A DNA stretch of 64,000 bases from Nitrospirota bacterium (GTDB lineage: Bacteria > Nitrospirota > Thermodesulfovibrionia > SZUA-242): positions 4,577 to 68,576 of the forward strand of contig QJVM01000155.1 of assembly GCA_003235715.1 (NCBI GenBank), read 5' to 3'. Of this stretch, positions 6,998 to 33,693 are shown one piece after another. The stretch's first letter is position 1, and the number at the start of each line of letters is the position of its first letter. Under the pieces are notes generated by a model. It was not told the origin of the DNA, ran no database searches, and worked only from the letters and a program-made list of their open reading frames with translations. Position numbers and translations under genes: made by a program.

Positions 6998-7026
6998 AAA
7001 AAAAAACCGATTCCCCGGGGAATCGG
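6998..7026 (-). terminator. intrinsic terminator downstream of the zinc-ribbon gene (perfect 20-nt palindrome plus T-tract on the - strand)
   Basis: ccgattccccggggaatcgg (7007-7026) is a perfect inverted repeat. It is followed on the - strand by a run of 9 T (A-run at 6998-7006 on +). Confidence 0.5.
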
Positions 7027-7052
7027 TCCACAGCAAACGACGACCTGAGCGG

Positions 7053-7808: not shown

Positions 7809-7991
7809 GATGAAAGTCTCCTCTGGATTGAAATCGAAGGGTCCGGCCCGCACCCACAAATGGGGGCCAGACCCGGGGACATCAGCACCTCACTGCCCTC
7901 TTCTATCGGCTATTCGGGGGCCGGACTGAAGGTCGCCGCCAGACAACGAGCCTGATTTGACAAACCTGCCCCGGGCCCGGAACAATGCCTC

Positions 7992-12019: not shown

Positions 12020-12700
12020 CTATTCATATTCGACGAGATCACGATAACGATACACTTCCGAAAGCACAACGTCCACGAATGCTTCATCATGCCCGAACTT
12101 GGCCAGCATCTTGTCCCGAAGCGAACCGTCCTCGGGCCCCAGATAGGAGGTCTTCCGGTGCAGGGCGGCATCAGAGAAATCCACAGCGGAGATGATTCGG
12201 GCGATATCGACAACCTCCCTCAGCGTCTCCGGTCCCATATCGTCCGGAATTTCATCGCACCGGATACCGTAGGTTCCGCCTCCCCCCATCTCATGGTGCA
12301 GCCCGGCGATCAGGGCCGAAAAGAGATGGACATCCTTGAGCAGGGCAAATCCCTTCTCGGCATGCTCGGTGATCCGCCGATACTCTTCCGGGCTTACGTC
12401 GTGCCCGTCGAAGAGTTGAGCCGGAAGGAGGATCTTTCCATAGTCGTGGAGCAGTCCGCCGTAAAAAGCGGCACGAGAATCCCGTCCGGTCTGGCGGGCC
12501 ACCCGGTCAGCCGCCAGGGCCACGCGACACGTGTGAGACTTGACCGTGGGGTCAAACCGGTTCAGGGCATTGAGGTAGTCGTGGCACGTGTCGGCAATAT
12601 GGCCTCGGTTACCGTAAACCTCGAAGCGGCCTTCGATGAGTTCCGATAGGGTCATTCCGTTCTTGAGGGGTCTCCGGCCCGGCGTCTTTGTCTCTTCCAT
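12020..12700 (-). CDS. HD-domain metal-dependent phosphohydrolase
   Basis: 226 aa with H...HD (GGLLHDYGK) and a downstream HxxxG...D pattern. It heads the HD-namZ-murU/amgK - strand operon. Confidence 0.7.
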   Translation of the reverse strand: MEETKTPGRRPLKNGMTLSELIEGRFEVYGNRGHIADTCHDYLNALNRFDPTVKSHTCRVALAADRVARQTGRDSRAAFYGGLLHDYGKILLPAQLFDGHDVSPEEYRRITEHAEKGFALLKDVHLFSALIAGLHHEMGGGGTYGIRCDEIPDDMGPETLREVVDIARIISAVDFSDAALHRKTSYLGPEDGSLRDKMLAKFGHDEAFVDVVLSEVYRYRDLVEYE

Positions 12701-12794
12701 GCCCGGGCTTTCATTTTGCTATAATCGGTCTCACAAACCGGACGGGGACTCCTCGTCCGTCAATCCCGGAGCCCCGTCCCGCATCCCTCATTGC

Positions 12795-13865
12795 ATGAAG
12801 ACACCGACTTTCAACCGGACCGTCTTCCGCGAACTGGTTTACACGTTTTCGCTGACCCTGGTTCTTTCCAGCACGGTGCTGCTCTTTGAAAGCCTGTACC
12901 GGATCATGAAGATGAGTCAGGGAGTCCCCATGCGCGAGGTCGTGAAACTCATCGTGTGGATTCAGCCGTCGTTTCTCGTTCTGGGAATACCGATGTCCCT
13001 CTTGATTGCCGTCCTGGTGGTCTATGGACGCATGACCATGGACAACGAGACCATTGCCCTCTCCGCCCTTGGAACTCCGTTTTCAATCATAGCACGCCCC
13101 GCCGTAGGTTTCAGTGCCCTGTGCCTTGTCCTGGCCCTCGGTGTAAGCCTGTATTTCTTCCCCCTCGGCAACCGCCTCTTCCGCGAAACCCTGTACGAAG
13201 CCATGACGAGTCACCTGTCCATCGATCCGGGCGTTATTAACGACCAGTTTCCAAACCTTCTCCTCCAGGCCAATATCAAGCATGACGATCGGACCTTCGG
13301 GGAACTCTTTCTGTATAACACAAAGGACCCGGAACGTCCCGTGGTCGTGACGGCACGCAGAGGCGAGGTGTATTCGGATCCCCAACGGGGAGTCTTCCAG
13401 TTTGTGCTTGAGGATGGGGACGTCCATGTGAACACCTCCGGGACGTCGTATACCTATCTGACCTTTGGTCGGTATTTCATGGAATTCAGTCTTGCCGGAG
13501 CCGGTGTGGCCTATGGCGGGACAGAAATGTTTATTCCGGAACTCTGGAAGGCCGCTACACGAGGGCCGGAAGACAAACGGCAAAGCCGCCTGACCCAGTT
13601 CCACAAACGTCTGGCCCTTCCCGTTTCCTGTCTGCTTCTGGGCTATCTGGCCCCAGGACTGGCCGGGTTCGTGGGGCGCGCGGGCCGGCTCGGGGGGTTT
13701 GCCCTGGCCCTGGTGGTGATATGCGGCTACTACGCCCTTCTGGTATTCGGGGAAAGTCTCGCCCGGACGGGCCAAATGCCGGCCGGGGTCGCCGTATGGG
13801 GCGCCAATGGCCTTCTGGGCATCGTGGCACTCAGCGTATATCGCTGGAAGTCCCGCGGCCCCTAG
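12795..13865 (+). CDS. lptF: LPS export ABC permease LptF (YjgP/YjgQ family)
   Basis: Start moved to ATG 12795 because the ORF-track start overlaps the divergent HD gene. It has 6 TM helices plus a periplasmic beta-jellyroll (FRELVYTFSLTLVLSSTVLLF...) and is paired with lptG. Confidence 0.8.
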   Translation: MKTPTFNRTVFRELVYTFSLTLVLSSTVLLFESLYRIMKMSQGVPMREVVKLIVWIQPSFLVLGIPMSLLIAVLVVYGRMTMDNETIALSALGTPFSIIARPAVGFSALCLVLALGVSLYFFPLGNRLFRETLYEAMTSHLSIDPGVINDQFPNLLLQANIKHDDRTFGELFLYNTKDPERPVVVTARRGEVYSDPQRGVFQFVLEDGDVHVNTSGTSYTYLTFGRYFMEFSLAGAGVAYGGTEMFIPELWKAATRGPEDKRQSRLTQFHKRLALPVSCLLLGYLAPGLAGFVGRAGRLGGFALALVVICGYYALLVFGESLARTGQMPAGVAVWGANGLLGIVALSVYRWKSRGP

Positions 13866-13901
13866 GCGTACGGAACGGATGTCCAACAGGGACCCAAACC
13901 C

Positions 13902-14975
13902 ATGACCATCCTTACACGCATGTACCTCCGACAAAGCCTGAACGTTCTGGCACTGACGGTTTGCGCCGTACTCAGCCTGTCCCTGTTGTTCGAGTTCTTT
14001 GAAGTCGTGAAATCGGCCTCGAAGACGGATGCTTCCATGGGACTCGTGGTTCGCTATCTTGCCTACGCCGCTCCCCGCTATGCGGTTTTCGCCATTCCCC
14101 TGGGCGTTCTGCTTTCCACGATGATTGTTCTGGGAATGTCCGCCCGGAAACAGGAACTGACAGCCGTCCGCTCCCTTGGCGGGTCCCTTCGCCGGATGTC
14201 CCTTGTCTTTGTCGCCATGGGATTCTTCTGGACAGGGGTCACCTACCTCCTTTCCGAATACATCATCCCGGAGGCTTCGAAGAAAGCCGTGCACATCCTG
14301 ACCGTGGAAATCGAGAAGAAGGAAACCCAGGGTTCCTATCTGCGCGACAAACACTGGCTTCGGATGAGAAACGGAGGGCTCGCCGAGATCGACGTCATGT
14401 CCGGCGATGAAATCCGGGGGGTCTCCCTTTATGAGTTCAAAAGCGGCATGGAGAAAAGAATCGAGGCCTCCGGAGGACAGTGGAAAGAAAACCGGTGGGT
14501 CCTCACGGACGTTGAAATCTTTACGTTCCGTGACGGGGCCATGACGACGGAACGCTCGGACACCCTTGAGGTATACATCCTGCCAGCTCCCCGTTTGCTC
14601 CGGGAAGAACAGAGAAAGCCGGATGAGATGACATTCAGGGAACTTCGGACCTATGCCCGCAACCTGGAGAGAGCGGGCATACGTGCCGACCGATACCGGG
14701 TCACGCTTCAGAGCAAGACGGCTTTTCCTCTCGTCTGTGTGGCCATGGGCCTGTTAGGGGCCGGACTGGCGTTGCGGGAGCGCTCAGGAGGGTCACGCTT
14801 CCGGATGATCGCTCTCTGCACGACGGTCATCGTCGCCTATTGGGGCCTGAACATGCTCATGCTCTCTCTGGGTTATGTGGGCCGCATTCCGCCCGTGGCT
14901 TCGGCGTGGCTGACCCCCGTCGTGTTTCTGGGTGGAGGCTCCTTTGTTTTTCTGCGGGCCGAAAGGATTCAATAG
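13902..14975 (+). CDS. lptG: LPS export ABC permease LptG (YjgP/YjgQ family)
   Basis: 357 aa with the YjgP/YjgQ architecture (MTILTRMYLRQSLNVLALT...), immediately after lptF. Confidence 0.8.
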   Translation: MTILTRMYLRQSLNVLALTVCAVLSLSLLFEFFEVVKSASKTDASMGLVVRYLAYAAPRYAVFAIPLGVLLSTMIVLGMSARKQELTAVRSLGGSLRRMSLVFVAMGFFWTGVTYLLSEYIIPEASKKAVHILTVEIEKKETQGSYLRDKHWLRMRNGGLAEIDVMSGDEIRGVSLYEFKSGMEKRIEASGGQWKENRWVLTDVEIFTFRDGAMTTERSDTLEVYILPAPRLLREEQRKPDEMTFRELRTYARNLERAGIRADRYRVTLQSKTAFPLVCVAMGLLGAGLALRERSGGSRFRMIALCTTVIVAYWGLNMLMLSLGYVGRIPPVASAWLTPVVFLGGGSFVFLRAERIQ

Positions 14976-15019
14976 CCGTGAAAGACTGTCCGGAGATCGA
15001 GGGGAATGAAAAGGAACGC

Positions 15020-15802
15020 ATGATAGAGGTGGGTGTCGTCCAAATGTCGATCCGGGACGGCCAGGTGGAGGAGAATCTCGAAACGGCGCTTGGCCTCATC
15101 TCGGATTTCCCCGGAGGGCAGATTTACCTCCTGCCGGAACTGTTCACGACGGGTTACGCCTATGAGGCGTGGCCGGCCGCGGGAAATGCCTATGAAGGGA
15201 TTCTTGAGAGACTTTCCTTCTTTTCGCGGGAGGTCGGAGCCGTAATTTGCGGGACCGTGATCGCCCGGGAAGCGGACGGCCTTTTCAACAGAATGGTGGC
15301 GGTTTTTCCGGATATGAGGCCCGTGGTGGCCTATAACAAAGTACACCTGTTCAGACCCATGAAGGAGGAGCAACACCTGCGCCCCGGGAGGTCGATTACG
15401 GGCTTTGCGCACGCCGGCCTCCAGTGGGGTATGGCCGTCTGTTACGACCTCCGTTTCCCTTCGATGTTCCAGCACATGGCACCAACCACGGACGTGTTTC
15501 TGGTCCCCTCCGAATGGCCCGAACCTCGTTGTGAAACCATGAAACTCATGGCCCGGGCCCGCGCCGCGGAGAACCAATGCTATCTCGTTTTGTCCAACCG
15601 CTGCGGTGGAGACCAGGCGGGAACCTTTTTCTGCGGTCATTCCATGATCATCGGACCTGATGGGCGCGTGATGGCCGATGCTGTACACGAGCAGACCGTG
15701 CTGCGTCTGCCGTTGTTTACTCGCGAAGTTCGTTCAGTTCGCAACCTGATGAATGTCCTTGTCGATAGGGTGGACGGGATAGACTCGGAGGCCTCAGACT
15801 GA
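15020..15802 (+). CDS. carbon-nitrogen hydrolase (nitrilase/omega-amidase superfamily)
   Basis: Start at ATG 15020 (MIEVGVVQM). The E-K-C catalytic triad context is present: the Glu in YLLPELF and the Cys in GMAVCYDLRFP. Confidence 0.8.
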   Translation: MIEVGVVQMSIRDGQVEENLETALGLISDFPGGQIYLLPELFTTGYAYEAWPAAGNAYEGILERLSFFSREVGAVICGTVIAREADGLFNRMVAVFPDMRPVVAYNKVHLFRPMKEEQHLRPGRSITGFAHAGLQWGMAVCYDLRFPSMFQHMAPTTDVFLVPSEWPEPRCETMKLMARARAAENQCYLVLSNRCGGDQAGTFFCGHSMIIGPDGRVMADAVHEQTVLRLPLFTREVRSVRNLMNVLVDRVDGIDSEASD

Positions 15803-15847: not shown

Positions 15848-16447
15848 AACGACAGTCGCACTTCCAGTTCAGACCGCACGTTACCCGTACTCCAGCAACG
15901 TTTTCTCTAGGTCAAACGAAACGCATCTCCATAAATTCCTTTTTGGCGTAGTAAGGTCCGTCATCGTTTGAAAACAAAATGAAACATTATGGAAGTCGGG
16001 TTCGGAGGGAGGCCGGGGAATTTTCGGTCGTTTAAAGTTCAAAAGCGCTATATCCGATACTTTAGGCATATCTGCATAACGGGTGATTCGAAGCGTCCGT
16101 GCTCCTCGGAATGCGAAGGAACGATCACCCTCCCAACAGGGTCATACCTGATTTCATACAGGTCGCACGAAACTCTATCTCCTTAACCAATACCGTCTCA
16201 CAGGATACGAACGAATCACGGCGTCCAGATAACGCGGACAGTTCGAAGGATTCAGACCTTTCTGGAACGAAGTTGGTGAACCAGACCATACCGGGGTGAC
16301 TGGGGGTTCCGGTCCGTTTCGGGACTTTCCCAAATCCTTGACCGTTTGGCCGCCGGATGGATTTTAGACATACGGGGTTCTGAGCTGTAACGCCCGCCTG
16401 TGCGGGACCATTTCCGAAGATTCAGACAGATGCAAGAGGTTGTGAAG

Positions 16448-17830
16448 ATGGATAACCCAAGCGAAACCAAGTCCGCAGCGCCGCGTGCGCCAAGGAGTTC
16501 CCGAACTCCGCGCAACAACCCTACAGTCGCGCGAACCGAACGTGTTCCAAACGGGACCGATGACAAGCGGACGCCTCGCATGAACATTACAGAGCTGAAG
16601 GCGAGAACCACGGAGGAACTCACCCAGATGGCCGCTTCACTGAATATTGAGGGAGCCAGCGGCCTTCGGAAACAGGACCTGATTTATGCCATCCTGCAGG
16701 CCCAGACCGAAAAAACCGGCAACATCTTTGCCCAGGGAGTACTTGAAATCCTCCCCGACGGTTTCGGTTTCCTCCGCTCGCCGGATTTCAGTTACCTTCC
16801 CGGGCCAGACGATATTTACGTTTCCCCTTCCCAGATTAGGAGATTCAATCTCAGAACAGGAGATCTGGTTACCGGACAGATACGTCAACCCAAGGACAAT
16901 GAGCGCTACTTCGCTCTTCTCAAGGTGGAGGCCATAGGACATGAGCCGCCCGAAAACTCCGTCCAGCGCCAGCTCTTTGATAATCTGACGCCCTATTACC
17001 CCACGGAAAAACTTCACCTGGATTACGCACCGGAGAACTATTCCACAAGGGTTATGGATCTGATCACCCCTGTCGGGAAAGGGCAAAGAGGACTGATCGT
17101 GGCGGCTCCCCGGACCGGAAAGACCATGCTTCTCCAGAACGTGGCCGTGGCCATTCGGAACGCCAACCCGGAGGTTCATCTCATCATCCTCCTCATCGAT
17201 GAGAGGCCGGAGGAGGTCACCGACTGGAAGCGCACCGTCGAAGGCGCGGAAGTCATCAGTTCCACCTTTGACGAACCGGCGCAGAGGCATTGTCAGGTGG
17301 CCGAAATCGTCATTGAACGGGCCAAGCGGATCGTGGAGAGCAAAAAGGACGTGGTGATTCTTCTGGACAGCATCACCCGCCTCGCCCGAGCCTACAATGC
17401 CATCATCCCCACGAGCGGCAAGGTCCTTTCCGGCGGTCTCGATGCCAACGCCCTTCAGAGACCCAAGCGGTTCTTCGGCGCCGCCAGAAACATCGAGGCC
17501 GGGGGATCGCTCACGATCCTCGCCACGGCTCTGGTCGATACCGGGAGTCGTATGGATGACGTCATCTTTGAGGAATTCAAGGGAACCGGGAACATGGAAC
17601 TCCACCTGGACCGGAAACTGGTGGAGAAGCGGATATTCCCCACCATAGACATCAACGCCTCCGGAACGCGGAAAGAGGAACTGCTCGTGGAGAAGGATGC
17701 CTTGAACAAGATATGGATCCTGAGAAAGGTTCTTCACCCGCTCAGTTCGGTAGAAAGCATGGAGTTTATCCTGAGCAAGCTGAGAGGGACCCGGAACAAT
17801 ACCGAGTTCCTGGAAATGATGAACAAATAG
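16448..17830 (+). CDS. rho: transcription termination factor Rho (with a ~45-aa basic/disordered N-terminal extension)
   Basis: Start at ATG 16448 (an AGAGG RBS is upstream). It has the [41 protein letters not shown]-terminal domain, an OB/CSD-like RNA-binding region, and RecA-type Walker A (AAPRTGKT), Q-loop and R-loop motifs. Confidence 0.9.
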
Positions 17831-17867
17831 AGTCGACGCCCCTTATATGCCGGGGTTCGCCGTTTTT

Positions 17868-18410
17868 TCATTTTCCGGACCCGGATTCCGGCTGAGTTCG
17901 TCTGTTCATGATCTTTTCCAGGGTATCCCGGTAGGTGGCCGTGGCGACGGCATCACCGGCCTTCATCGCCAGGTCGACGGCCTGACGGGACAGGTTCTCC
18001 GCCTCCTCAAGGTCTCCTCCCCGCTCCAGCATCAGCCAGGCCAGGTTATTCAGGGCTTCGGCACATTCGGGCTCCAAATCCAGTGCGACCCGGTAGTGTT
18101 GTTCCGCAGTGTCATACTTTCCTTTACCAAACCAGGCGTTGCCCAGGCACAGTTCGGCCCTGGCCCGGTGCTTGCCTCTCCGCGCCAACTCGTATTGGCC
18201 AATCGCGAGGTCCCACTCCCCTCTTTGTTCGTAGGCCGCACCCAGAGCGAGATGGTCCTCCGGGCCGAGGGGGTCCTCGATCACCCGGATGCTCGGTCCG
18301 GTACACGCGGCTCCGGGAAAGAGCAATACGGCCATCATCAATACCGAGAGGATTTTCAACGACCTTCTCCTGGGCTCAGAAACATGCCCCACCGACCCGT
18401 ACGTTCCCAT
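17868..18410 (-). CDS. secreted/lipoprotein TPR-repeat protein
   Basis: 180 aa with a signal peptide (RRRSLKILSVLMMAVLLFPGAAC) followed by 3-4 TPR units (ALGAAYEQRGEWDLAIGQYELA...AEALNNLAWLMLERG). Its 5' end overlaps the upstream C39-like gene by ~55 nt if ATG 18410 is the start. Confidence 0.65.
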   Translation of the reverse strand: MGTYGSVGHVSEPRRRSLKILSVLMMAVLLFPGAACTGPSIRVIEDPLGPEDHLALGAAYEQRGEWDLAIGQYELARRGKHRARAELCLGNAWFGKGKYDTAEQHYRVALDLEPECAEALNNLAWLMLERGGDLEEAENLSRQAVDLAMKAGDAVATATYRDTLEKIMNRRTQPESGSGK

Positions 18411-18958
18411 TTTCTCAGCAGACCAGGGTAATCCTCGTGGACGTCTTTCTTGTTTCCATCATGTACGAAGAGCCCGTTGTCATCAAAACCCGTAATTACC
18501 AGAAAGTGTCCCTGCCGCACGATCCAGAATCCTTCGTCCACGAGCAAGAGAACCGGGCGTCCCCCCCGGATTTCCTCCCGGACCGCTTCAAGGTCCAGAG
18601 CGCCCTGCTGCACGTTGTAGCCTTGATTCTTGGCAAACAGGTAAAGGTCCAGGGTCAGCGTTCCCCGGGCCTCGGAAGAGAAGACCGCCTCTGAGACGGC
18701 CTCCGGGGTGACCGGGTTTCCCCAGAAATTCAGAATGGAAGCTAGGGCCGCCGGGCCACATTGGTGGGCCGTCTGCTGGTGAAATGGAACCTTCAACAGG
18801 GTGAGGGAGGACTCCACGACTCCCGCAAAGGTCGGAGAGAGCACCAGAAATAATAGAAAACCGAAGAAACCTCTTTTCCGGCCACACCCCCGAAAAAACG
18901 CCGGGGCCCATAGGCCCCGGCCCGGTAAGAATTTCCGGGGTTGCAGGCCCCCGCACAT
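18356..18958 (-). CDS. C39-like (papain-fold) cysteine peptidase domain protein
   Basis: The motif QQTAHQCGPAALASILNFWG (Cys in a Q-C-G-P context) plus downstream His/Asp blocks (VITGFDDNGLFVHDG) match C39-like peptidase domains. The start is uncertain because a terminator-like hairpin lies 40 nt inside the ATG-18958 reading frame. Confidence 0.65.
   Translation of the reverse strand: MCGGLQPRKFLPGRGLWAPAFFRGCGRKRGFFGFLLFLVLSPTFAGVVESSLTLLKVPFHQQTAHQCGPAALASILNFWGNPVTPEAVSEAVFSSEARGTLTLDLYLFAKNQGYNVQQGALDLEAVREEIRGGRPVLLLVDEGFWIVRQGHFLVITGFDDNGLFVHDGNKKDVHEDYPGLLRKWERTGRWGMFLSPGEGR
18891..18920 (-). terminator. intrinsic-terminator-like hairpin (8-bp GC stem, 4-nt loop, T6) between the secretin/small-protein genes and the C39/TPR genes
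   Basis: On the - strand: ccggggcc-tatg-ggccccgg followed by cgttttttc. + strand coordinates 18901-18920 with the A-run at 18893-18898. Confidence 0.4.
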
Positions 18959-18963
18959 CGTCC

Positions 18964-19368
18964 CTACTCGATAATGACCTTATGCCCCGTAAGCTGGAGC
19001 AGGATGACCACCAGAATGGCAATGACCAGGATGGCGATGACCGCCCCAAGTGCCCCGTCGCCCCCCTTTTGAAGCAGGTCGAAGTTCGTGGCCATCTCAT
19101 GCAAGGTTGCGTCGTCGAGCTGGGCCAGGCGTTCCTCGACCTCGGCAGGGTTCAGGCCCAGGTCCTCCATCCTTTCCGTAACCACACGCGTTTCCAGGGC
19201 CTGCCTGATGCGCTCGAGGCTATCGCTCCGATCCGTTCCCTCGTCGCTGTAGAGCGTGGCAGAGGGGACAAATCCCGCAAACACATCGCCCGGAAAAGAG
19301 CCCACGATAAAAAGGGCTAGGGCAAGATACGAACCCATCAGGCGAAAATAAACTTTATCTCTGGCCAT
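18964..19368 (-). CDS. small bitopic membrane protein (N-terminal signal/TM, acidic middle, C-terminal TM)
   Basis: 134 aa. The N-terminus LMGSYLALALFIVGSFPGDVFA and the C-terminus GALGAVIAILVIAILVVILLQL are both hydrophobic. It sits 23 nt downstream of the secretin gene, and its stop is 5 nt before the C39 ATG. Confidence 0.5.
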   Translation of the reverse strand: MARDKVYFRLMGSYLALALFIVGSFPGDVFAGFVPSATLYSDEGTDRSDSLERIRQALETRVVTERMEDLGLNPAEVEERLAQLDDATLHEMATNFDLLQKGGDGALGAVIAILVIAILVVILLQLTGHKVIIE

Positions 19369-19391
19369 CTTCTTACCTCCTCCCGGTGAAA

Positions 19392-21347
19392 CTAGATATC
19401 TTCATGGTCAATGCGCTTTCGAATCAGGCGCACACGGTTGCGGTACTCTTCAGTGATAGCATCCGCTTCCTCGGAACCGGTCACGATATGAGGGGTCACT
19501 ATGATGAGGAGTTCCGTCCTGTCGCTCTTATCACTCGTCACGCCGAACAGGGCTCCCAGGTAAGGAATATCCGACAGGAAGGGGACCCCGCTGTGTGTCT
19601 TGTTCGCCACCTCCGAAATCAGTCCTCCGATGACCAGCGTATGGCCATCCTCGACAATCGCGGTCGTCTTGGCCTTGCGCGTATTGAAGACCGGGGAATT
19701 AATGCCCTCCACAAGAGCGTCGGCCACCGTGCTGATCTCCTGGGAAATCTTCAGGGTTACCATGTTCTTGGCATTGATCTGGGGCGTAACCTCGAGAATG
19801 GTTCCGGTGGTCCGATACTGGATCTGGCCCACCGTGGAGCCGGTGCTTGTATCCGTGGTCAGGTTGCCCGTGGCGGTGGGAACATCCCTACCCACCTCGA
19901 TCCGTGCCTCCTTCGAGTCGGTCGCAAGGATGGTCGGGCTCGAAAGAACCTTGAGCTGGTCTCTCTGGGCGTACAACCTAAGAAGAGCAGAAAACCGGCC
20001 TGCATCGAGAACCGCTGCAAAGGCCCCCGAGGAAGGAATAACCATTTCATTGACACTATCGATGCCACCCTGAACCATTCCTGTCGCCACATCCACCACG
20101 CGCCCCCCGACCTTGGCCGTATCCCTGAGAAGCCATTCGAGTCCGTACTCCTCTGCATCCGTCAGCGTCACTTCGGCCACCATCACGTCGATCAGGACCT
20201 GGCGCCTCGGCGTATCGAGTTTCTTCAGAGCGTCCACGATGGCCAGGTATTCCTTGGGCGTGGATTTGATGATAATGGCATTGATGTCCTCATAGGCCGT
20301 GATCACGACCTCCCCAAACGTCTCGCCGGATATTGTCGTGGGCGTCGTTGTTTCAGGCGTGGTCGTCTTTGCGGCCGCCTGTCGGGTGGCCAGGGCCCGA
20401 CGTCGTGCGGCCGCAAGCTGGGCCGCCCTGGAGGCGGCAGCGGTGGCGGCCGGCGTTGGCCTCTCCCCTGTGGTATCCGCGAAAATCTGCTTCAGAATCT
20501 CCACCAGAGACTTGGCCTCTCCATGCTCCACGTAATAGACAAACGTCCGGATGCCCTCGGATTCGGTCTCGGCCACATCGACGGCTTCCAAAATCTTCAT
20601 CAGGCGTCTCAGTGCATTGGGCCGGGCCGTAATGATGAGGAGATTTGTCGGCTCGTAAACCACGAGGTCCGCGCCACGGGGCAGGAGGTTCCGGAGTATC
20701 CCGGCCGCATCCGCCGCCTTCACGTTCTCGACCACCACGATCTGGGTCACAAACCCTGAATCGAGCTTCATCTCGATTTCCTTCCCCTTGCCAACCCCAA
20801 GCGGCATCCCCTTGGCCTGATCAATGGGAAGAATCGTGTAAAAGTGACCCTCCTGCACGGCGGTGAGATTGTTCATCTCGAGTATCGCCTGAAACACCGT
20901 AAAGAGGTCCTCGACCGGAAACTTGCTGTTGGACTGGATGGTGACGCTACCCGAGATGCCGGGCCCCAAAATGTAATTGATGCCCAGGATATCGCCCACG
21001 GTCTCGATGACCGTGTTGATATCGGCATTCTCGAAGTTCAGAATGATGTTCTTGGTGTCATCCGTCTCCTCTGTCGTGACCCTTCGCCGCCTCCGAGCCT
21101 CCTCCTGTTCAGCGGCCTGCCGGGCCGCCTCCTGCTCAGCAAGAAAAGGCTCGGGCAGCGCTTCCTCCGCAGCGGGCTCCCGCGAGGGCTCCTCGGCCGC
21201 CGGTTGAACGATAACGGGCTCGACCGCCTCCTTCGTGGAGGCACACCCTCCGGCCATGACCAGCCATGACAACGCCACAACCAGCAGGGCGAGAGCCGGC
21301 AGACGCCTATTGCTCAGTTCCATAAGAATTGGTCCTTGTTCTATCAT
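19392..21347 (-). CDS. gspD: secretin, type II secretion system GspD family (lipidated N-terminus)
   Basis: 651 aa with signal peptide plus lipobox (LVMAGGCAS), N0/N1-type domains (NIILNFENADINTVIETVGDILGINYIL), a Thr/Pro linker and a secretin C-domain (VPFLSDIPYLGALFG...ELLIIVTPHIV). Confidence 0.85.
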   Translation of the reverse strand: MIEQGPILMELSNRRLPALALLVVALSWLVMAGGCASTKEAVEPVIVQPAAEEPSREPAAEEALPEPFLAEQEAARQAAEQEEARRRRRVTTEETDDTKNIILNFENADINTVIETVGDILGINYILGPGISGSVTIQSNSKFPVEDLFTVFQAILEMNNLTAVQEGHFYTILPIDQAKGMPLGVGKGKEIEMKLDSGFVTQIVVVENVKAADAAGILRNLLPRGADLVVYEPTNLLIITARPNALRRLMKILEAVDVAETESEGIRTFVYYVEHGEAKSLVEILKQIFADTTGERPTPAATAAASRAAQLAAARRRALATRQAAAKTTTPETTTPTTISGETFGEVVITAYEDINAIIIKSTPKEYLAIVDALKKLDTPRRQVLIDVMVAEVTLTDAEEYGLEWLLRDTAKVGGRVVDVATGMVQGGIDSVNEMVIPSSGAFAAVLDAGRFSALLRLYAQRDQLKVLSSPTILATDSKEARIEVGRDVPTATGNLTTDTSTGSTVGQIQYRTTGTILEVTPQINAKNMVTLKISQEISTVADALVEGINSPVFNTRKAKTTAIVEDGHTLVIGGLISEVANKTHSGVPFLSDIPYLGALFGVTSDKSDRTELLIIVTPHIVTGSEEADAITEEYRNRVRLIRKRIDHEDI

Positions 21348-21898
21348 CGCCGGCGACGACTGGCGGGCCGGGAAGCTGGCTCCGCCGGTTCAGGCGTCTG
21401 GCCTCGAAGCTTGAGGTCCACGGGTTCACCCTTCCAGGTGAGCCGGGCCTCGAGAATCCCGATCTCCACCACTTCAAAGTTATCGAACATGTCTCCCACC
21501 CGGTAGGGCTGGGACCTCTCGTTATCCACCGAAATCAGGGCAATGCGCTCCCCGGACGGGTCCTCCAGAACCCCCTTGAGCATCACCGCCGGCATGGGCT
21601 CCGGAGGTGGGGGCGGTTCCTCCGGCATAACCACGACAGGTTCCACCGGCGGAGGCGGCGGGGGGGCCTTCACCACGCCGGTTCGGGTCGGGTGAAACAG
21701 GTTCCTTTCGAAAATATCCTTCCCCCCCGTGGCCCTGTACTCCGTGTCCGGCAGACCTCCAACAGACCGGGTGGCCGTCCCGACCGAACCGGCCGCATCA
21801 GCCACCGGATCGTACCCGGTCAGAATGGCCCGCACCGTAAACAAAGAATAGAGGAGAAGGCCCAACAAGACAAGCTCAAGTGCAACTTTACGTATCAT
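21344..21898 (-). CDS. GspC/PilP-like secretin-interacting protein (TM + poly-Pro + HR-type beta domain, no PDZ)
   Basis: 184 aa with an N-terminal TM (LELVLLGLLLYSLFTV), PPPPPP runs, and a C-terminal domain (VMLKGVLEDPSGERIALISVDNERSQPYRVGDMFDNFEVVEIG) resembling GspC-HR/PilP. It is overlap-coupled to gspD and to the gspM-like gene. Confidence 0.5.
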   Translation of the reverse strand: MIRKVALELVLLGLLLYSLFTVRAILTGYDPVADAAGSVGTATRSVGGLPDTEYRATGGKDIFERNLFHPTRTGVVKAPPPPPPVEPVVVMPEEPPPPPEPMPAVMLKGVLEDPSGERIALISVDNERSQPYRVGDMFDNFEVVEIGILEARLTWKGEPVDLKLRGQTPEPAEPASRPASRRRR

Positions 21899-22428
21899 AA
21901 CCGCATTATCCCGTGCACGGCAATTTTTATGTTCAGCGTTTCCGGGTCACGAACATTGGCCACAGAAACAGTAAGTTTGCTCACGTAAAGCCCCAGCCTT
22001 GACCGTTCAACCTTCCGGACAAAGTCTCTCAGGGAGGCTATTCTACCCCTGAACTCGAAGAGGAGCGGAACCTGGACAAAGTCCCCCCGTTCCAGAGGGG
22101 GCATGGGCTTCACCGTCTGAAGACTGAGACCCACGCCCTCAGCCATATCGCTCACCACCCGCTGCAGTTCAGCCGAGGCCAGCGCCGGTCCGGGGCTCGT
22201 CATAAACCGTTCCTCATACGATCTCAGTTCGTCATCGAGATCGGCCGCGAGACTCCCTAAGCCGTCGAACTGTTCGGACATGGACCGGTACTTGACGAGG
22301 AGCCGGTACCGGCTGAACAGTTCATCCTGCACGTTGACGTCATCGCTCCCAGGCCCGGCCACCAGGAGGTAGCCGATCACCACAACGCCCAAGGCCATCA
22401 CGAGAATCTTTCTTTTACTGACCTTCAT
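21895..22428 (-). CDS. GspM/PilO-like inner-membrane T2SS assembly protein
   Basis: Start at internal ATG 22428 (MKVSKRKILVMALGVVVIGYLLVA). It is bitopic with a ~150-aa periplasmic domain; the call rests on position between the gspL-like and gspC-like genes. Confidence 0.5.
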   Translation of the reverse strand: MKVSKRKILVMALGVVVIGYLLVAGPGSDDVNVQDELFSRYRLLVKYRSMSEQFDGLGSLAADLDDELRSYEERFMTSPGPALASAELQRVVSDMAEGVGLSLQTVKPMPPLERGDFVQVPLLFEFRGRIASLRDFVRKVERSRLGLYVSKLTVSVANVRDPETLNIKIAVHGIMRL

Positions 22429-23722
22429 GGCTGACCTGTTCCCAATACATTCGGATCGAAAAATGTTCTCCCATGGGCTGGACGATGACCGGGCCGGCCA
22501 TTTCCGCTCCAACAAACTGGTCCGATTCCTCCAGAAGTGCCAGGATTTCAGAGGAACGCGAGGAATAGCCGTCTATTTCGATCTTGCCCTTCTCGTCCAT
22601 ATCAAAGTTCACGAGCCACGTGTCCCGGGGCAGAATCCGGCTCAACTCCCCAAGAGCCACAAAAGGCCGATTCCGGTCAGCAAAGAACGGCCGGAGCACT
22701 TTAAGCGACCGGATCACGTTCTCGCGCTCCTTCAGCGGGCCCGAAGCCGAGTCAACGTTCTGGCGGAGCGTATTGAGTTCCTGGGTAACTTCGGCAAGCG
22801 CCCTCTCGTCGATTCGGGATTTCACCGTGACCTGAAAATAGAACGCGACCACCAGGAGACTCATGAGAAGCCCCAGAATAATATTGTGAGGATTCCGCTT
22901 GGTTCGGAAGGATTCCGGAAGAAGGTTCAGGAGGAAACTCCCCCGCGGGGTTTTCGTCCCGTCTCCTGGAAGCGTTTCTGCGACTTTTACGTTAATCCCC
23001 CTCAAGCTCGAGGCCGCCGTCCTGATCCCGGACTCGTTCCTTCCGTAAAACCAGACTTCCCTGCACCGGTGAAGCTCAGCCTCCCTTTCGATGGACTTCG
23101 CAATCATCACGGGATGGAGGTCCGGGTCAGGCGGAAGTTCGAGCGCTTTCAGATCCAGGGGTCTTCCGCCCTTGATCACGGCGAGGTCCGCCGTATCCTC
23201 CCCCATCCCCACCGAAAGAACGTCCGGGCCTGTCGCCTGCAGGGCATGGAACCGAAGGGCGCCCAGTTCAACGGAACGCACCACAATCTCCGCAGCCTGA
23301 AGGGCCTCGAGAAAGGGCGTGAGAAAGGAACGGGGGACTCCGGCTGCAAGGGCTTTGACCCCCTTTGCCCCGGACTCCAGAAAAGAGTAGGCCCAGTAGA
23401 AATTGTCCAGCGAAACCGGAAGCTTGCGCTCAAACTCAAAGGGGAGGGCCTTGCGGGCATCCGCGATCTTCATGGGCGGAAGTTCCAGAAGCGAAACCAC
23501 CGTCCGGTCAAGGGGCAACTCCAGAAGGACCCACTCCACCTTGCGTTCCTTGAGAAATCCGGTAAGCAGAAGGGGCGCCGGCTTATCTCCGGCCGCCTCA
23601 CCGCCCTGTTCCGGCCGGATGACTCCTCTTCCGCGGTCAGGCGCCCCCAGGGCTTCCTTGTCCGTCAGAACATAGGGAAACGCCGCCCCATCCAGCCTGA
23701 CGATGGCCCCTCGCTTAGACAT
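22415..23722 (-). CDS. GspL-like T2SS protein (cytoplasmic actin-like domain + TM + periplasmic domain)
   Basis: Start at ATG 23722 (MSKRGAIVRLDGAAF). It has a ~240-aa cytoplasmic part, a single TM (NIILGLLMSLLVVAFYFQV) and a ~140-aa periplasmic domain, matching GspL (or a PilM+PilN-like) architecture. Confidence 0.6.
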   Translation of the reverse strand: MSKRGAIVRLDGAAFPYVLTDKEALGAPDRGRGVIRPEQGGEAAGDKPAPLLLTGFLKERKVEWVLLELPLDRTVVSLLELPPMKIADARKALPFEFERKLPVSLDNFYWAYSFLESGAKGVKALAAGVPRSFLTPFLEALQAAEIVVRSVELGALRFHALQATGPDVLSVGMGEDTADLAVIKGGRPLDLKALELPPDPDLHPVMIAKSIEREAELHRCREVWFYGRNESGIRTAASSLRGINVKVAETLPGDGTKTPRGSFLLNLLPESFRTKRNPHNIILGLLMSLLVVAFYFQVTVKSRIDERALAEVTQELNTLRQNVDSASGPLKERENVIRSLKVLRPFFADRNRPFVALGELSRILPRDTWLVNFDMDEKGKIEIDGYSSRSSEILALLEESDQFVGAEMAGPVIVQPMGEHFSIRMYWEQVSHEGQ

Positions 23723-24671
23723 CGTCCCTCCACTGGAGCACGCGAACCTTGTAACCCGCCCCGTGGGGTTCCCGGCGAACAAAGGCCTCCAGGGATCTCG
23801 TATACTCTGTCCCCGCCGGTTTGGCGGAAGCCGCGATCCGGAAGCAATCCGAAGCCGTGGCGGTTATCCCCACTTTCCGGGCCGAGGCGGGGACCACCAG
23901 CACGGGGCCATTGGCCCGTTGCAGGAGGATGCTTTCGATATCGGTGTAGGGGACGCCGAGCAGGCTCATGGTTTCCGCCGAAACGGTATTCACGTTCATG
24001 CCGGTCTGAGGACAAATGCTCAGATGCCCGTAAATCCCCGTCAGTTCCCGCTCTGGATTTCCGAAGAGCACGTCGATGTCCATTCCCTTGACCATGAGAA
24101 GTTCGTCAATCGTGCTGAAAGGACCGTTCTTGGCCACGTACCCTTCGGACTCATAATGGTCTGTCTCGGCGCCGTTCAAAAGCCTCTCGTCATCCGGATC
24201 CCGCCAGTCCAGTATCGAATCGGCCAATTCATCGGCAGCTTTATCCTCCACACCACTTCGGAGGAGGAGGTCCATGATGGCATTGCGGGAAGCCGTATTG
24301 AGGTTCAGTTTGGCACTCTCATCGTTGATCCGGACGTCCACGGTTCCAAAATCCAGTTCCCGGTGCCCCTCAAAGGCTTCCCCCTCGGTTTCAACCACCA
24401 GTCGGCCTTCAGGGTCCTCGAAATCCACGCTCCGGTCGGGGTCGTTCATCAGAAACCGGACCGCATCTTCGTAAGCCGCAACAGCTTCATAATAGGCTTC
24501 GGCATCCTCCTTGAAATTGCGCACGCTGGTCAGCCCGGTTCGCATGCTGAGGGCAAAGGTCGCGCCGATAATCGCAAGCAACACCACGACCCAGAGGGTC
24601 ATCAGAAGGGCGATCCCTCTCGGTGTTCCCGCCACCCGCGACCATAAGGAATGGGTGCCCTTTGGGCTCAT
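23715..24671 (-). CDS. gspK: T2SS minor pseudopilin GspK-like
   Basis: 318 aa. The N-terminus RGIALLMTLWVVVLLAIIGATFA is the GspK-type pseudopilin segment, and the large periplasmic domain contains a GspK-like helix-hairpin-helix region (NLNTAS...LL). Confidence 0.65.
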   Translation of the reverse strand: MSPKGTHSLWSRVAGTPRGIALLMTLWVVVLLAIIGATFALSMRTGLTSVRNFKEDAEAYYEAVAAYEDAVRFLMNDPDRSVDFEDPEGRLVVETEGEAFEGHRELDFGTVDVRINDESAKLNLNTASRNAIMDLLLRSGVEDKAADELADSILDWRDPDDERLLNGAETDHYESEGYVAKNGPFSTIDELLMVKGMDIDVLFGNPERELTGIYGHLSICPQTGMNVNTVSAETMSLLGVPYTDIESILLQRANGPVLVVPASARKVGITATASDCFRIAASAKPAGTEYTRSLEAFVRREPHGAGYKVRVLQWRDDV

Positions 24672-24686
24672 CGCGTCCTTCGGGGC

Positions 24687-26369
24687 CTAGGTGACCCGAA
24701 GGACCTCCTCCAACGTGGTGATACCTTCATAAGCCTTGTTGAGACCATCCTCGTACAGGGTTTTCATTCCCTGTTCCATCGCATAGGTCCGGATCCGGTT
24801 TGATGTGGCATTCTCCATGATCAGAAGCCGCAGGTTGTCATCCACCCGGAGAAACTCATAGATCCCTATTCTCCCCCTGTATCCCGAGCCGTTGCATTCC
24901 GGACAGCCGGCCCCCCGGTGAAGCACCTCGACTTTCCGGCCAAAGATCTGGTCCGCATCCTTGCCCGGTTCATAAGGAGTGCGGCAGGAACCGCAAATTC
25001 TTCGTACCAGGCGCTGCGCCATAACCCCAACGAGGGTCGAGGATACAAGAAAATTCTCTACGCCCATGTCCAAAAGACGCGTGATCGCCCCCGGGGCGTC
25101 GTTGGTATGCAGCGTGCTGAAGAGGAAATGACCGGTCAAGGCGGAATGAACCGCGATCCCCGCCGTCTCGAGATCTCGGATTTCGCCGACCATGATGATG
25201 TCCGGGTCCTGCCGAACGATGTGCCGGAGTCCGGTGGCAAAGGACAGACCGATCTTGGGGCGCACCTGGATCTGGTTGATACCCGACATCTGGTATTCGA
25301 CGGGTTCTTCGATGGTAATGATCTTCTTGTCCGGTGAGTTCAGTTTGTCCAGGGAGGCATACAGCGTCGTCGTCTTGCCGCTTCCGGTCGGTCCCGTAAT
25401 CAGGAACATGCCGTAGGGAAGTTCGATAAGCTCTTCGTAATGTCTCTTGAGATCGCCGCTGAACCCGAGGTCCTCGAGTGAATAAAAGGCCGAAGACTTG
25501 TCAAGCACACGCATGACCACGCTCTCGCCATGAACCGTGGGAAGGGTGGAGACGCGGAGGTCCACTTCCCGCCCTCCGTAGACCCCCTTGATCCGTCCAT
25601 CCTGGGGCAGTCGCCTCTCGGCAATGTTCATCTGGGCCATGAGTTTCACGCGAGACGACAAAGCCGCCTGCATGCGTTTGGGAAAGGTCTGAGATTCATG
25701 AAGGATACCGTCAATCCGATACCGAACCCGGAAGACCCCCTCAAACGGTTCCAGGTGAATGTCGCTGCACCGGTCATTGACCGCATTCTCGATGATCACA
25801 TTGACCAGTTGAATGATGCCCCTGTCCTGGGCCAGGTCCTTGAGCTGGCTGACCTCGCCCGACTCCGGAATCGGACCTCCCGTTCGATCCTCTTCCTCCT
25901 CTTCCTCCACCACGTCCATGATTCGCTTCATAACGGCCCCGCGGGAACCGTAGAGCGATTCAAGAGAGTCCAGGATGTCTTCTTCAAGCCCGACAAATAT
26001 CTCCAGCCGGCGGCCAAGGGACGTCTTCAGGTTGCTGAGGGCCACACGATTCCCGGGGTCGGCCACCACCACCGTGAACACGTCGGCCGTCATCTTCACA
26101 GGAAAGATTCGATTCTCCCTCAGGAAGTCAAAGGAAATGGGATGGTCCACGAACGCGTCCTTCGGAAACTTCTCGGAAGTGAGGTACGGATACCCTGTAT
26201 GACGACTGATGGCCTTGAGAAGGTCTTCCTTGGACAGCCCGAACTCAAGAAGAATCTCGCCCACCCGCCGCGGAGGTTCCTCGGTTTGCTGGATTTCCAG
26301 CACATGGTCGACCTGCTCTCGCGAAGCGAGACCCAGTTCCACCAGAATGTCACCAAAATGGGTCGCCAA
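24687..26369 (-). CDS. gspE: T2SS/T4P-family secretion ATPase GspE (N-terminal GSPII_E_N/MshEN domain)
   Basis: 560 aa with Walker A (GPTGSGKTTTLYA), Asp and His boxes, a tetra-Cys Zn motif (CGSC...CPEC) and an MshEN-type N-domain (ILVELGLASREQVDHVLEIQQ). Confidence 0.9.
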   Translation of the reverse strand: MATHFGDILVELGLASREQVDHVLEIQQTEEPPRRVGEILLEFGLSKEDLLKAISRHTGYPYLTSEKFPKDAFVDHPISFDFLRENRIFPVKMTADVFTVVVADPGNRVALSNLKTSLGRRLEIFVGLEEDILDSLESLYGSRGAVMKRIMDVVEEEEEEDRTGGPIPESGEVSQLKDLAQDRGIIQLVNVIIENAVNDRCSDIHLEPFEGVFRVRYRIDGILHESQTFPKRMQAALSSRVKLMAQMNIAERRLPQDGRIKGVYGGREVDLRVSTLPTVHGESVVMRVLDKSSAFYSLEDLGFSGDLKRHYEELIELPYGMFLITGPTGSGKTTTLYASLDKLNSPDKKIITIEEPVEYQMSGINQIQVRPKIGLSFATGLRHIVRQDPDIIMVGEIRDLETAGIAVHSALTGHFLFSTLHTNDAPGAITRLLDMGVENFLVSSTLVGVMAQRLVRRICGSCRTPYEPGKDADQIFGRKVEVLHRGAGCPECNGSGYRGRIGIYEFLRVDDNLRLLIMENATSNRIRTYAMEQGMKTLYEDGLNKAYEGITTLEEVLRVT

Positions 26370-27911: not shown

Positions 27912-28666
27912 GCATATCCTCCTTCAACGCGAATGGGGCCCTCGGCCCGGCCAGCCACGAATTGACTCACCACCGGACTGGAGGTCTTACGGATTTCCTC
28001 CGGGGTTCCGACTTCGATGATTCTTCCGGAATACAGCATCGCGATCCGATCCGCAATTTTAAATGCACTCGTCATATCGTGCGTAATGGTCACCGAAGTT
28101 ACGCTGAGCCGTTCCCGGAGCGAGAGGATGAGATCATTGATGATGTCCGCCATGATGGGGTCCAGACCCGTTGTGGGCTCATCATAAAGGATACACTCCG
28201 GCTCGGTGGCAATGGCACGCGCCAGTCCGACCCGCTTCCGCATACCCCCTGACAGGTCGGCCGGCATGACGTCTTCGATTCCGCTCAGGCCCACCATACG
28301 GAGTTTCTCTGAAGCAATGCGCCGAACCTCCCGCGGCTTGAGCGAGGTATGTTGTCTCAGGGCAAAGCCCACATTCTCCCAGACGCTCATGGAATCAAAC
28401 AGGGCCGCGCCCTGAAAAAGCATACCCATCCGTCTTCGAAGATCATTGAGCCCGTGCTCGTCCAAACCGGAAATGTCGCTTCCGTCAATAAGAACCCGGC
28501 CGCCATCCGGCCGGAGGAGCCGAATGATGTGCTTGAGAAGCACGCTCTTTCCGGAACCGCTCCCGCCGATGACCACCATGCTTTCGCCCCGCTTGACTTC
28601 CAGGTCCACGCCGTCCAGGACCGCCTTGTCCCCGAAGGATTTGGTGAGTCCCTCGATCCGGATCAC
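27908..28666 (-). CDS. mlaF: ABC transporter ATP-binding protein MlaF
   Basis: The start was reassigned to GTG at 28666-28664, preceded by AGGAGG with a 9-nt spacer; the ORF-track start would overlap mlaE. Walker A (GGSGSGKS), LSGGM signature and Walker B (ILYDEPT) are present. Confidence 0.85.
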   Translation of the reverse strand: MIRIEGLTKSFGDKAVLDGVDLEVKRGESMVVIGGSGSGKSVLLKHIIRLLRPDGGRVLIDGSDISGLDEHGLNDLRRRMGMLFQGAALFDSMSVWENVGFALRQHTSLKPREVRRIASEKLRMVGLSGIEDVMPADLSGGMRKRVGLARAIATEPECILYDEPTTGLDPIMADIINDLILSLRERLSVTSVTITHDMTSAFKIADRIAMLYSGRIIEVGTPEEIRKTSSPVVSQFVAGRAEGPIRVEGGYA

Positions 28667-28679
28667 CTTCGAACCCCTC

Positions 28680-30577: not shown

Positions 30578-30806
30578 AGACGGTCTTACCTTCGTCGTTC
30601 TCTTCCTTCTTTTCCTCAACCTTCTTTTCCTCAACCTTGTCGCGCGGAGGCGATACATCAATCTCATCGTGGGAAACCGATTTCTTGAAATTCTTCATGG
30701 CCTCGCCGATACCCCGTCCGAGTTCGGGAAGGCGCTTCCCCCCGAAAATCACGATGACAATGATAAGGATGATGATGAGTTCCGTGGCTCCCAAACCGCC
30801 GATCAT
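30576..30806 (-). CDS. tatA: twin-arginine translocase subunit TatA/E
   Basis: 76 aa. [42 protein letters not shown] is the TatA TM-plus-amphipathic-helix signature, followed by an acidic/Lys-rich tail. Confidence 0.8.
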
Positions 30807-31666: not shown

Positions 31667-31695
31667 GGAGAAACAGAGGTCGAAGACCAACCGGG

Positions 31696-33609: not shown

Positions 33610-33693
33610 GTTTTGGATTTTACGGCAGATAGGAAGCGGGCCGCAAGAAAACCTATGGCCTCATTAAGAATCGAATGGAGAACCCGTACGCCT

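Follow-up and report, generated by a model that had tools for sequence, protein, structure and literature searches.

A PA2779-family gene with a split PA2778-type peptidase/TPR pair behind a Nitrospirota secretin gene: a candidate periplasmic cassette with a terminator-like hairpin

Introduction

Judging from sequence, the genes described in this work belong to a family that has already been catalogued, and the closest known unit is the PA2779/PA2778 pair of Pseudomonas aeruginosa. There, the first gene belongs to the same small-protein family (the literature mentions it as neighbouring bswR), and behind it, in the same orientation, come a C39-like cysteine peptidase and a tetratricopeptide repeat (TPR) module. 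The genes examined here lie in a 64-kb stretch of a Nitrospirota genome (contig QJVM01000155.1), referred to below as the window. Three minus-strand genes, which encode a small bitopic protein, a C39-like peptidase and a TPR lipoprotein, stand there directly behind the gene for a secretin of the type II secretion system (T2SS), and they will be called the cassette. The window differs from the Pseudomonas pair in that peptidase and TPR protein are the products of two genes joined by a TTGA overlap and not one fused protein. In addition, the peptidase carries a signal for signal peptidase I (SPase I) instead of a lipobox, and a terminator-like hairpin follows the small gene.

Other systems are comparable in part. 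GlyGly-CTERM/rhombosortase, sortase and exosortase signals may resemble the C-terminus of the small protein in their tripartite make-up: Gly-Gly, transmembrane (TM) helix and basic tail. A dedicated protease gene next to the small gene, with a T2SS adjacent in the window's lineage, adds to the likeness. In contrast with GlyGly-CTERM systems, no rhomboid or sortase gene is present (rhombosortase was searched for within the window), and conservation embraces the entire small protein and not the tail alone. The GlyGly-CTERM model gave no NCBIfam hit to the small protein at E values up to 0.1. The C39 domains of PCAT/AMS transporters (ComA PEP, PCAT1, LahT150) have the same fold as the window peptidase, with an aligned Gln/Cys/His arrangement, and the helix of the putative client ends in Gly-Gly, like a double-glycine leader. 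The window enzyme is, however, stand-alone and exported, and the candidate site is located before a C-terminal anchor and not after an N-terminal leader.

Among exported C39-like peptidases, FapD from the Fap amyloid system of Pseudomonas has been studied most, and no substrate has been assigned to it either (PMC5557850). Both FapD and the window enzyme are Sec-exported, stand-alone C39-like peptidases encoded in an operon with a presumed client and an outer-membrane secretion component (PMC5557850). The window lacks Fap genes and amyloid repeats, FapD lacks a TPR partner, and the likeness is at the level of the C39 fold. A TPR lipoprotein paired with a periplasmic protease is also found in the NlpI-Prc and NlpI-MepS systems (PMC5686067, PMC11211486). 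The likeness in logic is purely one of analogy, their proteases being of other families (S41, NlpC/P60). The pilotins PilF, PilW and Tgl are likewise small TPR lipoproteins encoded near a secretin.

Results

A PA2779-family gene and a split PA2778

Profile searches indicate that the trio is, with near certainty, PA2779 plus a split PA2778 made of a catalytic protein and a TPR lipoprotein. The small protein scores 76.6 bits against the NCBIfam model NF033919, "PA2779 family protein" (cut-off, 40), and 32.7 bits against Pfam DUF6627 (PF20332; cut-off, 27). Its 134 residues, with a signal peptide that ends in VFA before GFVPS, a C-terminal TM helix and a short HKVIIE tail after the helix, fit a family architecture of about 120-140 residues. 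A strong Shine-Dalgarno (SD) sequence, GGAGGAGG, is located upstream of the gene. A previous reading of this DNA (the sequence-only reading) had described the protein as hydrophobic at both ends and acidic in the middle, and residues 32-103 do contain 16 Asp or Glu versus 7 Lys or Arg. The three minus-strand open reading frames (ORFs) that it placed behind the secretin were all found.

The peptidase is 200 residues long and scores above threshold against two Pfam profiles, Peptidase_C39_2 (PF13529; 49.9 bits, threshold 24) and Peptidase_C39 (PF03412; 43.5 bits, threshold 22). The motif QCGPAALASIL corresponds to residues 66-76. An AlphaFold2 (AF2) model based on 32 homologues had a predicted local distance difference test (pLDDT) value of 84.8, and values exceeded 95 over most of the catalytic core. 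When the model was compared with the PDB using Foldseek, matches were obtained with 3erv, a C39-like peptidase from B. anthracis (E 6.6e-8), and with the C39 domains of ComA, PCAT1 and LahT150 (E 1e-6 to 1e-8), the target-normalised TM-score being 0.82 for ComA PEP. The papain-like C39 fold proposed earlier is thus supported by profiles and by structure prediction alike. The Gln, Cys and His residues are in register with those of LahT150 and ComA, with weak sequence similarity (E 0.03). Besides the catalytic Cys and His (Table 1), a VPF motif is invariant in the 32 homologues; at the third catalytic position the window enzyme has Asp, and most relatives have Asn or Ser. The enzyme is not a domain of an ABC exporter: it stands alone, with a signal peptide, and the sole ABC genes nearby are those of the Mla transporter (MlaE/MlaF), upstream of the T2SS block. 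An exact-sequence contig look-up with the window's peptidase found no record. In one of the related loci (L033:10407-10951) the C39 homologue extends over two overlapping ORF segments, which may reflect a frameshift or a pseudogene.

The relationship with PA2778 is seen when both ORFs are aligned with NF033920, "PA2778 family cysteine peptidase". Of the 255 positions of this equivalog model, 2-146 are matched by the peptidase (97.2 bits) and 165-254 by the TPR protein (32.3 bits, E 6.5e-8). Each covers about half of the model, and neither reaches its cut-off of 150 bits. The TPR protein is also colinear with part of P0026 (residues 190-306, E 9e-14), in which C39 and TPR are fused by nature. 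Unlike the single-polypeptide PA2778, however, peptidase and TPR protein are two ORFs in different frames. The sequence-only reading had named PA2778/PA2779-type loci, and the family was right (NF033919, NF033920); the roles were assigned wrongly, as PA2779 is the small bitopic protein and not a TPR protein, while PA2778 is a fusion of C39 and TPR.

The boundary between the two genes deserves attention. The longest TPR ORF (17868-18410 on the minus strand, 180 residues) begins at the first ATG, 18410, and taking this ORF yields the overlap of 55 nt with the peptidase gene that had been described before. The arithmetic is correct for the longest ORFs; the true boundary is probably another. The most likely start of the TPR gene is TTG 18359, which overlaps the peptidase stop codon: it is preceded by an SD sequence, GGAGAAGG, with 7 nt from the GGAG core to the TTG, and it opens a lipoprotein-type signal peptide with a lipobox, MKILSVLMMAVLLFPGAAC. 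The same TTGA junction is found in a 76%-identical locus (L002) and in a 57%-identical locus (L001), three loci in all, and in both relatives it leads into a signal peptide with Cys. Furthermore, the 163-residue form of the TPR protein exists as an NCBI annotation (MGW8323511.1) from a Thermodesulfobacteriota metagenome-assembled genome (MAG). Because of these shared junctions, the signal peptides and the annotated 163-residue form, we consider that the split is real and that a sequencing frameshift in a fused PA2778 can be ruled out. The two genes are probably translationally coupled through the overlap. The PA2778-type peptidase is split in the window's lineage and in most Nitrospirota, the split form being the common one in this phylum.

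Distribution of the cassette and the small protein as candidate client

A genome scan seeded on the membrane helix of the small protein yielded 47 loci, whose six-frame ORFs were searched with the window's proteins; the counts given below rest on 48 loci that carry the small gene. Most of the 47 scan loci belong to Nitrospirota, and the others to Syntrophales, a "delta proteobacterium" and Thermocrinis. A C39 gene lies downstream of the small gene on the same strand in 46 of the 48 loci. A TPR gene is found downstream in 37, and several of the remaining loci stop at a contig edge. In a Syntrophales MAG (L031:1291-2195), a tandem pair of PA2779-family genes precedes the C39 gene. On a wider scale, a search of 1.84 billion representatives with the PA2779-family profile retrieved 2373 members (clusters at 50% identity) at E <= 0.001, from Nitrospirota, Thermodesulfobacteriota, Aquificota and Gammaproteobacteria including Pseudomonas.

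Conservation is unusual in the membrane helix of the small protein: L114, I116, A117, I118, L119, V120, L126 and G128 are invariant in family alignments, and the pattern IAILVV[IV]L[LI][QK] was by itself sufficient to pull out the 47 loci. Conserved positions are also found in the periplasmic part. Among 208 family members, G71 is present in 100%, E59 and L67 in 97%, A93 in 94% and H90 in 92%, and the -1 position of the signal cleavage site, before GFVPS, is a near-invariant Ala. In the hinge that precedes the membrane helix, G102 is Gly in 87% (Ala in 12%), G103 is Gly in 78% and D104 is Asp in 75%. The secondary structure predicted by AF2 is consistent with this: the signal helix leads into a disordered segment, followed by four short helices, a helix break at GGDG (102-105) and the membrane helix. 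A helix that ends in Gly-Gly, encoded beside a peptidase of the C39 "double-glycine" type, suggests the small protein as substrate. That the small protein is the client of peptidase and TPR protein is nevertheless a tentative proposal, to which we give less than even odds.

Export of the enzyme is predicted from an SPase I-type signal with a long n-region and a cut after SPTFA (FLLFLVLSPTFA, then G). Most C39 and TPR homologues in the Nitrospirota loci L003-L045 carry lipoboxes. The peptidase of the lineage formed by the window, L001 and L002 has lost the lipobox Cys, while the TPR protein has kept it. A twin-arginine translocation (Tat) signal was considered and rejected: a KR pair is present in the window, but the twin-arginine motif is not kept in L002.

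Several observations speak against a dedicated client that is cleaved in the periplasm. The Gly-Gly hinge is not strict, as G103 is replaced by Gln or Lys in about 12% of the 208 members, and a classical double-glycine cut is thus not assured. The AF2 model of the small protein has low confidence (pLDDT 61.5). Two loci (L020:9989-10381 and L042:9977-10378) harbor orphan PA2779-family genes without adjacent C39 or TPR genes. In four Thermocrinis loci with a C39 ORF after the small gene (MAG loci L046:1651-2501, L047:9980-10830, L048:9899-10806 and L049:2326-3233), a signal peptide is missing from the peptidase and a TPR gene from the locus; the presumed start of the peptidase is GTG in L046, whereas L047, L048 and L049 have GTA, which is not a canonical start. 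Either translation begins at a non-canonical codon or the peptidase is leaderless and cytoplasmic, which is a misfit with a universal periplasmic model; no slippery site that might support programmed frameshifting was evident in these loci. Finally, a literature search on PA2778, PA2779 and DUF6627 retrieved no functional study, nor any experiment on a family member. Both orphan genes end in strong terminators, each a hairpin plus T-tract, ahead of unrelated genes (Nudix and cytidylyltransferase genes in one case, ndk in the other); this speaks for the terminator reading of the window's hairpin, discussed below.

An alternative view is that the peptidase is an envelope hydrolase, acting for instance on peptidoglycan or lipoproteins, with the TPR protein as adaptor in the manner of NlpI with MepS or Prc, and that the small protein is an anchor, a regulator or an inhibitor. 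Foldseek matched the peptidase model to PeiR, an endoisopeptidase that acts on pseudomurein (E 7.8e-7, query-normalised TM-score 0.60). In 28 loci an alanine racemase gene (Alr) is found no more than 7 kb away, often accompanied by MlaE/MlaF; the window's own neighbourhood contains LptF/LptG, Mla and heptose genes. Moreover, TPR lipoprotein adaptors for periplasmic proteases are established (PMC5686067, PMC11211486). However, sequence models assign the enzyme to C39 and not to NlpC/P60, the Alr/Mla synteny is limited to one phylum (it may be inherited gene order, and is absent from the Gammaproteobacterial loci), and the strict pairing of peptidase and small protein suggests a dedicated partner. 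We therefore regard an envelope hydrolase as unlikely, if far from negligible.

A terminator-like hairpin within the peptidase reading frame

The sequence-only reading had pointed out a perfect 8-bp GC hairpin followed by six T residues inside the peptidase frame. The element is real; its stem is, however, 9 bp long and begins 37 nt past the A of ATG 18958, and the stem-loop lies 43-64 nt past the stop codon of the small gene. The stem-loop, GCCGGGGCC-TATG-GGCCCCGGC, occupies 18921-18900 on the minus strand and is followed by G TTTTTT C at 18899-18892; the 22 nt fold at -21.1 kcal/mol. This is the form of an intrinsic terminator: a GC-rich stem-loop with a T-tract directly after it, downstream of a stop codon. 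Chance alone does not account for it. The hairpin was the top-ranked terminator-like site in a scan of the 15.8-31 kb region, and when both strands of the whole 64 kb are considered, just one other perfect stem of 9 bp or more is followed by a T-tract. In Markov simulations, hairpins of at least 8 bp appeared with a mean of 0.5 raw hits per window, compared with 4 observed (2 distinct sites). A repeated palindromic element was ruled out, as the hairpin is unique in the window and no second copy was found there, and an Rfam scan of 17700-19600 gave no match.

Comparison with L002 was informative. Stem and T-tract are identical in both loci, with a single change in the loop. Relative to L002, codons 1-24 of the peptidase gene have diverged by 12.5% at the nucleotide level, compared with 34.8% for the remainder of the signal peptide and 19.5% for the mature enzyme, and codons 1-24 contain 5 synonymous and 4 non-synonymous codon changes. 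Hence, this segment is conserved as nucleic acid and not as peptide. Hairpins are also found at a similar position in other lineages: L001 has a different one (GAGUCGGGGCC-GCCG-GGUCCCGGCUC, then UUGUUUUAUU) 37-68 nt past the stop of the small gene, in a 260-nt spacer, and L029, L030 and L044 have another 23-48 nt past the stop, upstream of the peptidase ATG. The hairpins of these four loci are non-homologous, carry T-tracts, lie 20-70 nt past the stop and are intergenic. A terminator embedded in the ORF is a local peculiarity common to the window and L002. Two metagenome scans for closer relatives, in which covariation of the hairpin might be seen, returned L001 again and two distant loci only.

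With these data, the attenuator reading proposed for the hairpin gains support from sequence conservation, and we lean, by somewhat better than even chances, towards a partial intrinsic terminator (attenuator) after the small gene. Termination would have to be incomplete. In the mature peptidase, the window and L002 differ by 38 synonymous and 36 non-synonymous codon changes; an enzyme under purifying selection must be expressed, and, since a promoter could not be accommodated after the hairpin, transcription must read through.

It is also conceivable that the hairpin has no regulatory role, being a by-product of the GC-rich Gly/Arg/Pro/Ala/Phe codons of the n-region, and that the three genes are simply co-transcribed. 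Observations that favour this view, and weaken the case for attenuation, are several. An intrinsic terminator within a translated ORF is unusual, and this hairpin lies within the sole plausible ORF. Its arms double as Gly, Arg, Pro and Ala codons, which are common in GC-rich n-regions, and L008 has a GC-rich hairpin-forming stretch at the equivalent coding position. The 96-nt region around the hairpin has a modest fold score (z = -1.86 versus shuffles) and can form alternative GC pairings. Terminator-like sites are not in general excess in the 15.8-31 kb scan (19 versus 16.1 expected). No hairpin was found after the small gene in about 38 of the 48 loci under the criteria used, so attenuation is not a general property of the cassette. 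On the other hand, a perfect 9-bp GC stem with six T residues occurs just twice in 64 kb, the other site being a canonical terminator; stem and T-tract are unchanged in L002 while the peptide differs at 4 of 24 codons and the flanking DNA has diverged; and hairpins that are neither homologous nor coding are found at the same distance in other lineages. Altogether, a mere by-product seems improbable to us, about as much so as the envelope hydrolase.

The second perfect 9-bp site of the window lies at 7006-7027 (minus strand), 26 nt past the stop of ORF 7053-7859 (minus strand), and reads ACCGATTCC-CCGG-GGAATCGGT followed by T8. It shows that canonical intrinsic terminators are in use by the organism.

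Relationship with the type II secretion system

The position of the trio behind gspD raises the possibility that its products are accessory factors of the adjacent T2SS, with the TPR protein as a pilotin (like PilF, PilW or Tgl) and the peptidase in charge of maturing a substrate or component of the system. The three genes share the strand of gspD and follow directly on its 3' end, with short gaps, and the arrangement recurs in L001, L019, L034 and L041; the TPR protein has weak matches to PilW (TIGR02521, 32.2 bits) and Tgl (NF033762, 18.1 bits), and FapD provides a precedent for a periplasmic C39 peptidase that can be required for a secretion pathway (PMC5557850). A link with secretion, which the sequence-only reading implied, is however not conserved. 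Apart from the window, a secretin gene (with gspK, gspL and gspM) is found upstream in those 4 of the 48 loci only. Elsewhere the cassette follows frr, Alr or MlaD, or lies amid unrelated genes in Gammaproteobacteria. Clustering of neighbours distinguished the layouts rpsB-tsf-pyrH-frr-cassette-Alr-MlaE-MlaF, Alr-MlaE-MlaF-cassette-aminotransferase and Alr-cassette. In Porticoccaceae and one other lineage, a DUF6627 gene directly precedes a fused C39-TPR gene and the neighbours are unrelated. For these reasons we consider the cassette autonomous and the T2SS adjacency lineage-specific. The window itself (Alr-MlaE-MlaF-MlaD, gspE-K-L-M-p184-D, cassette) has what looks like the Alr-MlaE-MlaF-cassette layout with a T2SS block inserted. 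As to the TPR protein, its scores are far under the PilW and Tgl cut-offs (154 and 225 bits), the secretin association is not conserved, and its orthology is with the C-terminal TPR half of fused PA2778-type enzymes. Thus, by similarity and synteny, it does not appear to be a dedicated pilotin, and a role of the trio as T2SS accessory factors is very unlikely.

Start of the peptidase gene

We place the start of the peptidase gene at ATG 18958 because any other start codon would sacrifice the signal peptide: no further in-frame ATG, GTG or TTG occurs before the hydrophobic core, and the next in-frame starts (a GTG 119 nt past the stop of the small gene, and later ones) would delete the signal peptide. 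The ATG, 5 nt past the stop of the small gene, is kept in L002, and both NCBI and JGI call the 200-residue form. A true start downstream of the hairpin had been suggested earlier. In that case the hairpin would be a full terminator of an operon made of the secretin gene and the small gene, and the enzyme would be cytoplasmic and devoid of signal peptide. We find this highly improbable: the hairpin has the position and form of a normal terminator, L002 has an in-frame GTG just after the T-tract, the Thermocrinis homologues seem to lack signal peptides and one JGI call in the 90% cluster is 153 residues long, but the codon equivalent to that GTG is TGT in the window, the first later start removes the hydrophobic core, no room exists for a promoter between hairpin and gene, and nearly all homologues have a signal peptide or a lipobox.

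Coordinates and genomic context

The positions of the features discussed above are given in Table 1. On the minus strand, the secretin gene lies directly upstream of the small gene, which is followed by the peptidase and TPR genes; on the plus strand, the Rho gene (16400-17830) converges on the cassette. The T2SS-like operon (21344-26369, minus strand) contains gspE (with an MshEN N-domain), gspK, a PilN-like gspL, gspM, a gene for a 184-residue protein and gspD; it lacks gspF, and no pseudopilin genes are found between gspE and gspK. The regions 12636-15802 (plus strand) and 26379-38708 (minus strand) are mostly devoted to envelope biogenesis, with genes for LptF/LptG, alanine racemase and MlaE/MlaF/MlaD, and also for a WbpM-like dehydratase, HldE-like and GmhA-like heptose enzymes and glycosyltransferases.

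Table 1. Features of the cassette and of the adjacent secretin gene, in window coordinates
Feature	Position	Strand	Basis or remark
DUF6627 / PA2779-family small protein, 134 aa	18964..19368	-	NCBIfam NF033919 and Pfam PF20332
C-terminal TM helix of small protein, residues 106-127, LLVIAILVVILLQL	18988..19053	-	Unusually conserved
Gly hinge codons G102-G103-D104	19057..19065	-	Helix break between periplasmic helix 86-101 and TM helix; candidate cleavage site
Stand-alone secreted C39-like cysteine peptidase, 200 aa from ATG 18958	18356..18958	-	Pfam C39_2 and C39
Terminator-like element, 9-bp all-GC stem, TATG loop, G-T6-C	18892..18921	-	Within peptidase ORF codons 13-23
Catalytic Cys67 codon (in QCGPA)	18758..18760	-	Invariant in 32 homologues; aligns with catalytic Cys of LahT150 and ComA
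Catalytic His151 codon (in GHFLV)	18506..18508	-	Invariant in 32 homologues; aligns with His of LahT150 and ComA
TTGA junction (TPR start TTG overlapping peptidase stop TGA)	18356..18359	-	Read directly
TPR lipoprotein, 163 aa from TTG 18359	17868..18359	-	C-terminal half of NF033920
GspD-type secretin, context outside the cassette	19392..21347	-	Pfam Secretin, Secretin_N, GspD N0

Discussion

The explanation that we prefer is that of an autonomous cassette made of PA2779 and a split PA2778, in which the peptidase and the TPR protein act on the small protein and a hairpin attenuates transcription within the unit. We assign this explanation as a whole a probability of roughly 50%.

A tentative mechanism can be outlined as follows. 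All three products, with the small protein exposing its helical domain, would face the periplasm, given the lipoboxes of most C39 and TPR homologues and the SPase I signal of the window's peptidase. The TPR protein may be the substrate-binding or adaptor module of the peptidase. The likeliest client would be the small protein, whose conserved helical domain would mediate binding and which might be cleaved close to the Gly hinge, before the membrane helix. At the RNA level, the partial terminator would end most of the small-gene message, together with that of the secretin operon, thereby keeping it above the enzyme messages, and the peptidase gene, with the TPR gene translationally coupled to it, would be present on read-through transcripts alone. 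An abundant small protein fits a promoter selection in P. stutzeri, in which the strong constitutive promoters chosen included that of a PA2779-family gene (PMC10155442). The peptidase would be translated from ATG 18958, probably by re-initiation 5 nt past the stop of the small gene, and the hairpin would therefore fall in codons of the unconstrained n-region of the signal peptide. That re-initiating ribosomes modulate the hairpin is a speculation. As for the location behind gspD, it may result from a lineage-specific insertion of the T2SS into an Alr-MlaEFD-cassette neighbourhood, with no functional dependency.

A bolder version, which we find very unlikely, is that PA2779-family proteins are C-terminally anchored pro-proteins, that the exported C39 peptidase and its TPR partner, as their dedicated processing enzyme, cut the Gly hinge next to the membrane to release or transfer the conserved helical domain of about 70 residues, and that a translation-sensitive terminator sets the expression ratio. 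If true, this would be a new C-terminal processing system, sortase- or rhombosortase-like, built on a double-glycine peptidase; in the window's lineage the system would sit at the end of a T2SS operon, with a terminator within the signal-peptide codons of its own enzyme.

The findings on the cassette are unlikely to greatly surprise a specialist. Nonetheless, identification of the trio as PA2779 plus a split PA2778, at the strength given above, means that it no longer counts among candidate parts of the T2SS. Little characterisation of exported C39 peptidases exists, FapD being the main precedent, and the cassette offers a clear, testable pairing of one such enzyme with a co-encoded, membrane-anchored putative client. 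The terminator embedded in the peptidase ORF is, in turn, a tidy candidate for control of stoichiometry within an operon.

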